Shown: positions 1-6,031, counted from the first letter of the stretch. The stretch: 11,147 nucleotides of DNA from a virus (IMGVR_UViG_2585427748_000016:1-11147), one strand, 5' to 3'. Translations and numbers: made by a program. Notes: generated by a model not told the origin, from the letters alone.

Positions 1-1284
1 TTACTTCTTCGCCTCTGCAACCACTTTACTACCCACGCCGCGGTTATTGTATTCCCACATGCGGTTGTAGTTAGTGTCATTCAGATTGCGCTGTATTTCG
101 TCGTTATCATCTACGCTGCCGGTATTACCCGCAAACGGACGATTAGAGATCACCGCATCGGCCCACGGTTTAGCCGTGTTAAAACCTTCGTTGATGGCGC
201 TATCACGGATCACCACCTGACCGTTGGTATTGGCATCAACATCCAGCGAGCGGCCCAGTTGCGCCACACCATCACCGAAAGCATTGAAACGGCTGTTTAC
301 GGCGAGGAAACCGTAGTAAATGTTGGACAGCGTAGCCGGTGCAAACACATACGCTTCTTGCTGAGTACGTGAGTTCACCACGCGGAATTCGGTGTTATCG
401 AACACCACTGCGCCGCGACCAAAAACGATATCCACATCCCCTTCAATGTAGCTGTTGGTCACCAGCGTACGCGGCTGACGATTTGTTTCCAGACGGTTCT
501 GCACACCGCTGTTGGTGACAAAGAAGGTGTTCTGACGACCGAGAATGTTAACGTTGTTAATCTGTACCTGGTCACCATCAGTACGCAGTGCCACCGCCGG
601 ATGGTTACCTGCATCTACGCTATCGCCCAGCGTGTTTTCGATGGTCAGATTTTGCAGTTGCAGGCCATTGTTTTGTGACCAGAAGACCGCAGAGCAGAGA
701 ACACCGATACTGTCGCTGCGTTTGCTCTGGCAGCTATCGTACATATACCACGCTGGTTTACCTGGCATATATTTGCCGCGCGGGTTGACGTCGTGACGCC
801 AGTCGGCAGGGCTCATGCCACCATCAAGGGAAAGCCCAATCTTCACATCAATCGGTTTTTCACCTGTACCGTACAGAGTAATTCCACCCGGAGCGGCAGG
901 GACATATACCGTTCCCTGATACTCACCAGGCATCACGGCAATATACTGGCGCTTGTTGGTACGCTTGATAATTGCCGCATCTACCGCCGCCTGAATCGTG
1001 GTATGCGTTACACCTTGAGTGCCCGCCGGGCCGACAACAAAGTCAGGTTGCGCAGGCAGGGTAATCGGGGAAGGATTCCACGCTGCAGCACCTGGTGTCA
1101 GGGATGCAAAATAGTGTTGAGCATCGAAATTCTGCGCTTCTTTTGCCGACAGAATCGGGCGAGAAGAGGTACCAGGCGCGGTTTGATCAGAAGGACGTTG
1201 ATCGGGCGGGGTTGAGCTACAGGCGGTCAGCGTCACGCCAAAAGCCAATGCCAGCGCCAGACGGGAAACTGAAAATGTGTTCAC
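1..1284 (-). CDS. ybhC: YbhC-like outer-membrane lipoprotein (pectinesterase-like acyl-CoA thioesterase family)
   Basis: Complete 427-aa ORF with the stop codon at window position 1-3. N-terminal signal peptide with lipobox LTAC. Length and position immediately beside the lambda att core match E. coli ybhC as recalled. Confidence 0.85.
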   Translation of the reverse strand: MNTFSVSRLALALAFGVTLTACSSTPPDQRPSDQTAPGTSSRPILSAKEAQNFDAQHYFASLTPGAAAWNPSPITLPAQPDFVVGPAGTQGVTHTTIQAAVDAAIIKRTNKRQYIAVMPGEYQGTVYVPAAPGGITLYGTGEKPIDVKIGLSLDGGMSPADWRHDVNPRGKYMPGKPAWYMYDSCQSKRSDSIGVLCSAVFWSQNNGLQLQNLTIENTLGDSVDAGNHPAVALRTDGDQVQINNVNILGRQNTFFVTNSGVQNRLETNRQPRTLVTNSYIEGDVDIVFGRGAVVFDNTEFRVVNSRTQQEAYVFAPATLSNIYYGFLAVNSRFNAFGDGVAQLGRSLDVDANTNGQVVIRDSAINEGFNTAKPWADAVISNRPFAGNTGSVDDNDEIQRNLNDTNYNRMWEYNNRGVGSKVVAEAKK

Positions 1285-3957: not shown

Positions 3958-4506
3958 TCACTGGTTGCCTCCTTTGCGAAGCTGGGCGGCTAACTCATCA
4001 CATATGTGCGTCAAAGAGCAAAGTTTGATTGATGGATGTTCGCGCATCATCTCCACCCCCTGCGCCCGTACTTCAGCCAGGAAAGCATCGGTGGCTGGCA
4101 TATTTCCTGTTGCCTTCATGGCCTCCAAAATAACCAGAACACCATCTCTCCCAATCTCCTCGCAGATAACCTCGGTGCTGTCGCCAACAACATCGCAGAA
4201 TTCCTGAACTGCTTTACGAGCCAGCTCATTCTCCGCCGCCAGCGCCGAAAACTTCTCGTGTGCCAACTTAACAGCTGCATCAGCCTGCTTAATTGACTCA
4301 GTCGCTTTCTGGTGGTCTTCGGCCAGCCCTGCTAAATCAGCCTCCAGTTCGGCTAGGCGTTCATTTAATGCATCTCGTTCATCCAGTAGAGCCAGCACAA
4401 CCTGAGGTGTGACTTTCATACGAAATGCCAGCAATTTTTGAGGTGTTGCTACTGTTTCAATTGCTACTGCCGCCTCACGCAGTGCCTGAGAGTTAATTTC
4501 GCTCAC
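3958..4506 (-). CDS. ea22: Ea22-like exo-xis region protein (coiled-coil)
   Basis: 182-aa ORF with a GTG start overlapping the upstream stop (GTGA). The N-terminus MSEINSQALREAA and the LALLDERD segment match lambda Ea22 as recalled; the C-terminal two thirds appear divergent (mosaic). Confidence 0.65.
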   Translation of the reverse strand: MSEINSQALREAAVAIETVATPQKLLAFRMKVTPQVVLALLDERDALNERLAELEADLAGLAEDHQKATESIKQADAAVKLAHEKFSALAAENELARKAVQEFCDVVGDSTEVICEEIGRDGVLVILEAMKATGNMPATDAFLAEVRAQGVEMMREHPSIKLCSLTHICDELAAQLRKGGNQ

Positions 4507-4724
4507 TTCGAACCTCTCTGTTTACTGATAAGTTCCAGATCCTCCTGGCAACTTGCACAAGTCCGACAACCCTGAACGGCCAAGCGTCTTCGTTCATCTA
4601 TCGGATCGCCACACTCACAACAATGAGTGGCAGATATAGCCTGGTGGTTCAGGCGGCGCATTTTTATTGCTGTGTTGCGCTGTAATTCTTCAATTTCTGA
4701 TGCTGAATCAATGATGTCTGCCAT
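4503..4724 (-). CDS. TraR/DksA-family C4 zinc-finger protein (lambda orf73-like)
   Basis: 73-aa ORF with CCECG-(17)-CRTCASC, a CxxC...CxxC zinc finger typical of phage TraR-like proteins. Its position between orf63 and ea22 matches the exo-xis region. Confidence 0.7.
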   Translation of the reverse strand: MADIIDSASEIEELQRNTAIKMRRLNHQAISATHCCECGDPIDERRRLAVQGCRTCASCQEDLELISKQRGSK

Positions 4725-4822: not shown

Positions 4823-5038
4823 TCACCGTTCCTTAAAGACGCCGTTCAACAAGCCGATCGCCAGCCTTAAATGAGTCGGTGTGAATCCCATCAGCGTTAC
4901 CGTTTCGCGGTGCTTCTTTAGTACGCTACGGCAAATGTCATCGACGTTTTTATCCGGAAACTGCTGTCTGGCTTTTTTGATTTCAGAATTAGCCTGACGG
5001 GCAATGCTGCGAAGGGCGTTTTCTTGCTGAGGTGTCAT
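4823..5038 (-). CDS. Hypothetical exo-xis region protein (71 aa from the Met at 5038; the track ORF extends to 5104)
   Basis: ORF in the same orientation, tightly packed between orf63 and the orf73-like gene. The start codon is ambiguous (ATG at 5104 or 5038). No recognisable motif. Confidence 0.45.
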   Translation of the reverse strand: MTPQQENALRSIARQANSEIKKARQQFPDKNVDDICRSVLKKHRETVTLMGFTPTHLRLAIGLLNGVFKER

Positions 5039-5114
5039 TGAACAAGCCCCATGTCGGCAAGCATAAGCACACAGAATATGAAGCCCGCTGCCAGAAAAAT
5101 GCATTCAGTGGTTG

Positions 5115-5306
5115 TCATACCTGGTCTCTCTCATCTGCTTCTGCTTTCGCCACCATCATTTCCAGCTTTTGTGAAAGGGATGCGGCTAACGTATGAAATT
5201 CTTCGTCTGTTTCTACTGGTATTGGCACAAACCTGACTCCAATTTGAGCGAGGCTATGTGCCATCTCGATACTCGTTCTTAACTCAACGGGAGATGCTTT
5301 GTGCAT
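5115..5306 (-). CDS. Exo-xis region protein, lambda orf63-like
   Basis: 63-aa [40 protein letters not shown]..., matching lambda orf63 in length and position. Confidence 0.6.
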
Positions 5307-5422
5307 ACAGCTCCCCGTTTATTATTTATCTCCTCAGCCAGCCGCTGTGCTTTCAGGGGATTTCTGATAACAGAAAGGCCGGGAAGCCCAATATTTGATA
5401 CCAGACCTCTCCGCGCCGCCAT
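5279..5422 (-). CDS. Small ORF (47 aa) overlapping the orf63 start by 28 nt; possible truncated or chimeric orf60a-like gene at the deletion junction
   Basis: ATG at 5422 with an AGGAGA Shine-Dalgarno 9 nt upstream. A 28-nt overlap with the orf63 start is the same arrangement as recalled for lambda orf60a/orf63. The N-terminal part may derive from junction sequence. Confidence 0.3.
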
Positions 5423-5454
5423 GATTGTCTTTCTCCTGATGCAGGAGGCCAATA

Positions 5455-5649
5455 ATGCTTAGCCCATCTCAATCCCTTCAATACCTGAAAGGAAGCATAG
5501 AGCGGGCTTCAATGTGCACAGAGTGGATTCTATCTAGGTTTAGCGCATACAGAAGATTGCCGGTAAAGGGCATGCCAAGCAAGTCGATGCTGCATATGCA
5601 AAAGAATGCGCGCTGGAAGGTATGGCGAAAACACAGGTTATGTGGCTGA
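5455..5649 (+). CDS. Hypothetical 64-aa ORF at the junction, with a strong Shine-Dalgarno
   Basis: AGGAGG followed by 7 nt and ATG at 5455. No recognisable motif. Overlaps the ybcO-like remnant in another frame, so it may be fortuitous. Confidence 0.25.
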
Positions 5650-5672
5650 AAGAGGGGATTATTAAGGCGTGA
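5544..5672 (+). pseudogene. 3' remnant of a ybcO-like (DUF1364 nuclease family) nin-region gene, lacking a start
   Basis: The frame ending at TGA 5670-5672 translates ...[34 protein letters not shown], resembling the C-terminus of DLP12 YbcO as recalled. An in-frame stop at 5541-5543 leaves no N-terminal region. Its stop overlaps the rusA GTG start. Confidence 0.4.
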
Positions 5673-6031
5673 ATACCTACAGCATCACATTACCCTGGCC
5701 TCCGAGCAATAATCGCTATTACCGCCATAATCGCGGGCGCACGCACGTCAGCGCAGAGGGGCAGGCATACCGCGATAACGTCGCCAGAATCATTAAAAAC
5801 GCAATGCTGGATATCGGCCTGGCTATCCCTGTGAAAATCCGCATTGAGTGCCACATGCCGGATCGCCGTCGCCGTGACCTGGATAATCTGCAAAAAGCCG
5901 CTTTTGACGCACTCACTAAAGCAGGTTTCTGGCTGGATGATGCTCAGGTCGTTGATTACCGCGTTGTGAAGATGCCTGTTACCAAAGGTGGGAGGCTGGA
6001 ACTGACCATCACCGAAATGGGGAATGAATGA
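5669..6031 (+). CDS. rusA: Holliday junction resolvase RusA
   Basis: 120-aa ORF with a GTG start, [37 protein letters not shown]..., matching the RusA family (DLP12-type) in length and sequence as recalled. Confidence 0.85.

Follow-up and report, generated by a model that had tools for sequence, protein, structure and literature searches.

A probable internal-deletion scar joins orf60a to ninX in a cryptic lambdoid prophage of Escherichia coli

Between orf63 and rusA, the prophage-like sequence IMGVR_UViG_2585427748_000016:1-11147 carries a set of short, overlapping pieces of lambda-type genes, which raises the question of how these pieces came to lie side by side and whether any of them forms a new gene. 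In this study, we examined positions 5279 to 5672 of this 11,147-nt stretch of DNA (the whole of which is referred to here as the window) by comparison with related phages and prophages. The closest complete genome was that of E. coli E5, which is 99.3% identical across 98% of the window, and the gene order was taken from the alignment to E5 together with gene calls on identical contigs (Table 1). Judged from these comparisons, the window is a cryptic lambdoid prophage of E. coli adjoining ybhC, i.e., in the lambda attB region. None of the genes for N, the repressor, cro, cII, O, and P was detected anywhere between orf63 and rusA. Since N, the repressor, cro, O, and P are absent, the prophage is therefore defective.

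DLP12 and other cryptic ("grounded") lambdoid prophages are likewise integrated and have lost immunity and replication functions via internal deletion (PMC6379469). [quoted passage not shown] In contrast to DLP12, which resides at argU, the prophage in the window is located at the lambda attB side (ybhC). The nin regions differ as well, with a ninX-ninF'-'ybcO arrangement in the window and ybcN-ninE-ybcO in DLP12.

Some further features of the two arms were recorded. An orf61-like gene is open for 93 aa at 4823-5104 on the minus strand, and the RefSeq annotation of E5 gives 216 nt (71 aa) only. Its homologue in strain 52F4 (L002) is listed as "cell division protein ZapA" in RefSeq; both the start site and the naming of this gene are inconsistent. 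Between the porin gene and quuD, a strong terminator-like hairpin was found at 6688-6671 on the minus strand, downstream of the leftward porin gene; it consists of GGGGCGTTGCAACGCCCC followed by a T-rich tail, ATTTTTAATA. A structured RNA search yielded zero matches to Rfam families anywhere in the window, and zero Chi sites were found in it.

Table 1. Features of the window, with positions counted from its first nucleotide
Feature	Position	Strand	Basis or remark
ybhC	1-1284	-	Prophage flank
Left genes following ybhC: integrase, excisionase, LprI-like, ea22-like, TraR/DksA-like, orf61-like, orf63		-	
orf63 (DUF1382), intact, 63 aa	5115-5306	-	Pfam PF07131, E = 3e-31 over full length; E5 protein identical
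orf60a (DUF1317) 3' fragment, codons 26-60 plus stop (last 107 nt)	5279-5385	-	E5, 100%; lambda, 96.8%
47-aa chimeric ORF, 144 nt, ATG at 5422	5279-5422	-	Translation; exact protein called on at least 24 contigs
53-aa ORF across the junction	5301-5462	+	Mechanical ORF; GTG start, no evident Shine-Dalgarno sequence
Crossover	5384-5385		AA assignable to either parent
ninX 3' fragment, last 25 codons plus TAG stop (5460-5462)	5386-5462	+	Translation equals C terminus of ev207 NinX
AGGAGG, Shine-Dalgarno sequence of ninF', within the coding end of ninX	5443-5448	+	P22 ninX/ninF overlap reads AGGACG
64-aa ORF	5455-5649	+	AGGAGG 6 nt before ATG; ATG overlaps ninX stop
65-nt spacer from ninF head to ybcO tail	5518-5582	+	Source gene not identifiable
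ybcO (DUF1364/His-Me finger nuclease) 3' remnant, last 29 codons plus stop	5583-5672	+	tblastn, 26/29 to YbcO residues 68-96
rusA, intact, 120 aa	5669-6031	+	rusA in all related loci; Pfam RusA on matching contigs
Right genes from rusA: ylcG, quuD, porin, essD/rrrD/rzpD, bor/iss		+, except leftward porin and bor/iss	

A three-way alignment of the window with a left parent (E5, L004) and a right parent (L003/L007) placed the crossover at 5384/5385. With the break written as a slash, the left parent reads ...AAAGGCCGGGAA/ATACCC and the right parent ...AAAAGGCGTAA/GCCCAAT, and the window runs ...AAAGGCCGGGAA GCCCAAT across the junction. The left arm (5000-5385) is 100% identical to E5. When positions 5100-5900 were compared with relatives by BLAST, the left arm was 96.8% identical to lambda, ending at lambda 31275, and the right arm was 98.5% identical to phage ev207, beginning at 5374 in the gapped and at 5386 in the ungapped alignment. 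Each arm matches known phage or prophage DNA with 98-100% identity, which excludes a chance pattern. The two genes that meet at the junction are both incomplete. The orf60a fragment matches positions 26-59 of the 60 positions of Pfam PF07026 (DUF1317), with the first 25 codons deleted, and ninX is represented by its last 78 nt, an incomplete reading frame that covers positions 97-114 of 114 in Pfam PF10765 only. The sequence-only reading had suspected a breakpoint fusing the exo-xis region to the nin region here and had proposed an alignment for locating the crossover and any microhomology. Such a breakpoint does lie inside the interval, but it separates orf60a from ninX, which had gone unrecognized, and not the ybcO fragment from its neighbors; the alignment gave the exact crossover with a 2-nt overlap not above chance. 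An intact orf60a or ybcO frame, which would have spoken against the proposal, did not emerge, both genes being partial.

To the phage ev207, which is intact in this region, the left arm aligned at 4214-4599 and the right arm at 15289-15813, both on the plus strand and collinear. The segment between the breaks (4600-15298) contains exo, bet, gam, kil, N, the repressor gene cI, cro, cII, O, P, ren, ninB, dam, ninE, and most of ninX and measures 10,699 bp (~10.7 kb), a size and gene list that describe a relative with a left arm 96% identical to that of the window rather than the actual parent prophage. Collinear flanks in the same orientation, the lack of lytic and immunity genes between them, and the presence of the junction in independent assemblies all point to the same event. 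The interval is very probably (at a rough probability of 0.9) the scar of a collinear internal deletion by which a lambda-like prophage lost its genes for control and replication. Deletion scars of this type are an ordinary kind of prophage decay.

In the leftward early (pL) operon, the break cuts orf60a at codon 25/26, and in the rightward early (pR) operon, it cuts ninX so that 78 nt of this gene remain; the ends were joined at the AA overlap. An overlap of 2 nt or more is expected by chance with P = 0.16, as estimated from 30,000 random breakpoint pairs with L004 as the left parent (ev207 differs at the junction), so that the overlap lacks the above-chance length expected of a microhomology-mediated deletion. 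A longer overlap of the two arms in the BLAST alignments (12 nt, 5374-5385) was also considered as microhomology and was rejected, as it is gapped and patchy and a match as good as its AAAGGC has P = 0.30. Since the overlaps are at chance level, homology did not guide the joining. The mechanism is probably an illegitimate, homology-independent joining, which may have taken place in a single step or as a secondary event inside an older deletion. Having lost pL and pR, nutL/R, the repressor, and its replication genes, the remnant would no longer be capable of induction, replication, or host killing, and both arms would be left without their native promoters. In the lambda record (NC_001416), a misc_recomb feature is annotated at 31266^31267 (L005 767-768) inside orf60a, with no explanatory note in the record; this point lies 9 nt from 31275, the equivalent of the left breakpoint of the window.

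The junction encodes a 47-aa protein on the minus strand, and an exact look-up of this protein, the only route by which carriers of the junction were reached, found it recorded in 37 blocks of an assembly collection. All 24 of the 24 contigs that were read (from NCBI, ENA, and Logan) carry the protein. Seven loci from these contigs, namely, one NCBI draft genome, two ENA metagenome assemblies, and four Logan run assemblies, show the gene order of the window and are 99.93-100% identical to it over up to 11,147 bp. Occurrence of the same junction in at least 24 independent contigs, with GCA_030002175.1 as an example of a carrier, indicates that it is real and not an assembly artefact, and it is inherited in one near-clonal lineage. 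The junction was present in 0 of 5,426 complete E. coli genomes, and its 28-nt string was absent from GTDB species representatives and JGI metagenome contigs.

To the right of the crossover, a second and different seam was found. A stretch matching positions 5386-5672 with 97-99% identity occurs in 27 phage genome records (GenBank submissions together with the corresponding RefSeq copies), among them those of ev207, 2G7b, ev017, mEp332, the PhiR series, and Chlobot. In these phages, the seam sits between a complete ninX and rusA, and many E. coli prophages whose nin region is intact carry it as well. Judging from this distribution, the AGGAGG motif, the 64-aa ORF, and the ybcO fragment predate the deletion and are assigned to an older ninF'/spacer/'ybcO seam derived from the parent phage. 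This older seam accounts for the 64-aa ORF with its strong ribosome-binding site and for the ybcO fragment without a start, all of which the sequence-only reading had correctly described, including the overlap of the 64-aa ORF with the ybcO-like segment in another frame. The Shine-Dalgarno sequence, which had been taken for an orphan, is not one; AGGAGG is identified by comparison with P22 as the native translation start signal of ninF, located in the 3' end of ninX.

The composition of the seam was traced piece by piece. Positions 5440-5517 correspond to a P22-type ninX end and about the first 21 ninF codons, with ~90% DNA identity. The arrangement of the P22 ninX-ninF region, in which the end of ninX and a Shine-Dalgarno sequence are followed by an ATG over the ninX stop and the ~21 ninF codons, is thus conserved. 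Unlike in P22, ninF is replaced after codon ~21 in the window, where the frame runs into the ybcO remnant and the cysteine-rich part is missing. For the adjoining spacer, the only matches beyond the 27 phage records were in four records of Stx1-converting phages (87% identity over 5489-5589), where the related sequence is unannotated DNA downstream of dam, e.g., in SH2026Stx1 (L008 2001-2101). The ybcO remnant keeps the final 29 codons and, as in DLP12 and phage 82, a stop that overlaps the start of rusA. The match to YbcO spans 5583-5669, and the TGA stop (5670-5672) overlaps the GTG of rusA. Unlike ybcO of DLP12 and phage 82, the copy in the window lacks 67 of 96 codons and is a pseudogene fragment, which is also found in viable phages. 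It has no start codon, and besides the in-frame stop at 5541 noted earlier, a second one is present at 5535. The remnant is 95% identical at the DNA level to the intact ybcO in the DLP12-type locus L006, and the same piece is annotated as a pseudogene by RefSeq in L001, L002, and L019. Its score against Pfam PF07102 (YbcO/DUF1364) was 14.2 bits, below the cutoff of 29.9, in line with an incomplete ORF.

The 64-aa ORF consists of three parts, a NinF head (~21-22 aa), the spacer, and an out-of-frame reading of the ybcO remnant. BLASTP against P22 NinF aligned residues 1-22 only, and the match to phrog_672 was likewise confined to positions 1-22 of 58, so that the ORF does not represent a whole NinF protein of ~58 aa with its cysteine cluster. 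Zero matches to Pfam or NCBIfam were obtained. Lambda NinF had no tblastn match in the window, the resemblance being to P22-type NinF only. In RefSeq, the ORF is widely named "protein ninF" (YP_009909696.1 in ev207), which looks like a propagated over-annotation. That it is nevertheless a genuine, functional small gene, i.e., a NinF variant, appears improbable to us. Its near-perfect Shine-Dalgarno sequence, an ATG coupled to the ninX stop, an open frame in the 27 phage records, an NCBI "protein ninF" cluster of 83 protein variants, and the occurrence of the exact 64-aa sequence on 368 contigs would fit such a gene, but the resemblance to NinF ends at residue 22, no Pfam or NCBIfam family is matched, the NinF cysteine cluster (CxxC...CxxCC) is lost, and residues from ~43 on are the out-of-frame ybcO tail. 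The pattern of substitutions also argues against it: compared with the copy in Stx1 phages, 9 of 13 substitutions are non-synonymous in the frame of the ORF, and compared with intact ybcO, all three substitutions inside the ORF are non-synonymous there and conservative or silent in the ybcO frame.

We next turn to the ORFs that span the deletion junction itself. The sequence-only reading had considered that the breakpoint may have created a chimeric small gene. A chimeric ORF was indeed created by the deletion, but it is the 47-aa ORF on the minus strand and not the 64-aa ORF, whose seam is present in the 27 phage records. The coordinates bear out the reported length of 144 nt and the overlap of 28 nt with the start of orf63, and the same 28-nt overlap is found between orf60a (31169-31351) and orf63 (31005-31196) of lambda (PMC6213356, PMC8614690). 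Unlike its lambda counterpart, orf60a in the window lacks the first 25 codons and the native promoter and has a new N terminus of 12 residues antisense to ninX, which are followed by Orf60a residues 26-60. A TTG at 5452 would extend the ORF to 57 aa (5279-5452). An AGGAG at 5437-5433, which precedes the ATG by 10 nt, corresponds to a CTCCT in ninX codons read on the opposite strand. Against the DUF1317 profile (PF07026), the 47-aa protein matched positions 26-59 of 60 with E = 1.6e-18, which is less than full length, and it matched positions 26-54 of phrog_1998. On the opposite strand, the 53-aa ORF consists of the antisense of orf60a and of the orf63 start, followed by the last 25 aa of NinX.

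In a published model (PMC8614690), Orf60a forms one small domain in which a single helix accompanies three or four beta-strands, and the 25 missing residues would include the N-terminal beta-strands. Since the first 25 residues of Orf60a are lost, the 47-aa ORF is most likely a non-functional by-product. A simple consensus scan found no promoter-like site at or near the junction, and a promoter created by the fusion was rejected on this basis. Because pL and pR are gone, no promoter-like site is present, a terminator-like hairpin follows the porin gene, and the domain is truncated, we regard both the 47-aa and the 53-aa ORF as presumably silent by-products. Expression of the 47-aa ORF, with its product acting as a truncated or dominant-negative Orf60a, is very improbable. 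The in-frame ATG, the AGGAG 10 nt upstream, the retained natural overlap with the orf63 start, and its prediction by gene callers are what would be expected of a translated ORF, but pL is deleted, no minus-strand promoter-like site lies upstream, and the sole leftward gene to the right, encoding the porin, ends in a terminator-like hairpin. The product also lacks 25 of the 60 residues of a single-domain protein. Stable inheritance of the junction in at least 24 assemblies might be taken as a sign of function, but the carriers are near-clonal, and the persistence is hence uninformative with respect to selection.

Sister prophages join the same two regions at other junctions, which identifies the deletion as a common fate. 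In YZ_2_2 (L001; ML35 is listed with the same features), orf60a is joined to dam, in the DLP12-type prophage at argU (L006) to ybcN, in ET776 (L017) to the middle of ybcO, and in PK8566 (L018) to the ybcO tail, the last of these 3 nt from the left endpoint of the window. In 52F4, exo is joined to ninX, 14 nt from the right endpoint of the window, and in ES9 (L019), orf63 is joined to dam. In E5, the closest complete genome, the prophage lost its immunity region in another way: here (L004 8289-9458), ISEc52 (IS3-like) lies directly between a fragment of an ea10-like gene and rusA. In a further locus (L136), exo contains an insertion that we take to be an IS3-family end (TGAACCGCCCCGG).

Several of the sister junctions start at one particular TA dinucleotide in orf60a (...GTGATCGCGCCTA/), referred to here as the hot TA. 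It is located at lambda 31322-31323, which is equivalent to 5432-5433 of the window, where it has been deleted, and 48 nt to the right of the junction in undeleted orf60a. IMG/VR and metagenome contigs were scanned for the 20-mer followed by a non-reference base, and complete genomes were included. Deletions or rearrangements whose left end is the hot TA were seen with at least 14 distinct right partners, among them O, ren, dam, two positions in ybcN, the middle of ybcO, the ninF'/'ybcO spacer, and a position immediately upstream of an Rz endopeptidase-like ORF. Loci with this endpoint include L001 (6333-6334), L006 (3333-3334), L017, L027, L048, L100, L113, and L140-L150. In all nine cases for which an undeleted right parent was found, the right break also follows a TA, of which one copy is kept; TA makes up only 4-5% of the dinucleotides in these arms. 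Junctions ending in TA were also seen at other left positions, namely, in L103 (5369), L018 (5388), L049 (6112), L040 (6241), and L109 (6330), which lie in orf60a, exo, and bet (window-equivalent positions). The four of these with a recoverable right parent (L103, L018, L040, and L109) are all TA-to-TA joins. This indicates that the TA bias is not limited to one hot spot.

Potential causes of the TA bias were considered. Chi sites do not account for it, the window having none, and a DNA hairpin around lambda 31323 was not significant (z = -0.64). The two scans for the endpoint yielded 14 loci, none with an IS at the hot TA, and a literature search on TA-specific deletions in E. coli retrieved nothing relevant. 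A restriction site, Vsr, RusA (which cuts 5' of CC), and a serine recombinase would each fit the left site at most. Candidates for the activity behind the hot spot are end joining linked to IS excision, a serine recombinase, a transposase specific for TA, and a recombinase or nuclease directed to TA. The junction in the window falls outside the TA-to-TA class, with GGGAA/ATAC in the left parent, GCGTAA/GCCC in the right parent, and an AA overlap; its distance is 48 nt to the main hot TA and 3 nt to another junction. Conceivably, a specific process acting in the 5' half of orf60a (lambda 31,270-31,325) recurrently excises the early region of lambdoid prophages, with the scar in the window as a product or secondary product, an idea that we hold only tentatively and consider unlikely on balance.

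The sister loci also bear on the number of steps. L001 and L019 have a right endpoint in dam in common within 1 nt (ev207 ~14509), and their left endpoints differ (5433 and 5287, respectively), a pattern suggestive of secondary deletions beginning at a junction that was already present. The window could correspondingly have arisen in two steps, by joining of the hot TA (5433) to dam and a subsequent deletion of ~0.84 kb that produced the junction of 5385 with ninX. The deleted segment of the window, as mapped on ev207 (4600-15298), wholly contains a deletion of the L001 type (4648-14508), the sole difference between L001 and the window is 827 bp of extra sequence between the arms (L001 6287-7112), and L019, which combines the right endpoint of L001 with another left endpoint, suggests that junction-adjacent secondary deletions do occur. 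On the left arm, however, L001 is not the closest relative (97.9% identity, compared with 100% for E5), and no genome was found that combines the arm alleles of the window with an L001-type junction. We therefore view the two-step route as rather unlikely.

An excised IS offers another route to the internal deletion. Excision dependent on an IS-excision enhancer (IEE) is reported to generate adjacent deletions with sizes from a few nucleotides to over 40 kb, and more than 30% of E. coli assemblies reportedly carry IEE (PMC9943667). An IS in orf60a might thus have been excised by its transposase and IEE via microhomology-mediated end joining, with loss of ~10 kb of flanking DNA. Such excision is reported to delete flanks, IEE is reportedly frequent in E. 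coli (PMC9943667), and sisters carry IS elements at or near the equivalent region, i.e., ISEc52 beside rusA in E5, an IS5-like element in L001, and the IS3-family-like end in exo of L136. At the junction of the window, on the other hand, there is neither an IS nor an IS remnant, no genome with an IS at 5385 was found, and the 2-nt overlap, being no more than chance, counts against end joining after IS excision, which makes this route quite unlikely.

The deletion scar alone is of small import, as it represents one more lambda-like prophage of E. coli that was disarmed while rusA, Q, the porin gene, the lysis genes, and bor/iss were kept. For annotation, the RefSeq name "protein ninF" of the 64-aa ORF rests on a 22-residue head followed by unrelated, out-of-frame sequence, and the "DUF1364 pseudogene" adjoining rusA represents a long-standing seam of viable phages and not a sign of prophage decay. 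The string ACAGAAAGGCCGGGAAGCCCAATATTTG provides a nucleotide-exact marker for one E. coli lineage. If true, recurrent TA-to-TA deletions from orf60a would constitute a specific molecular route of prophage inactivation, which may merit a separate study.
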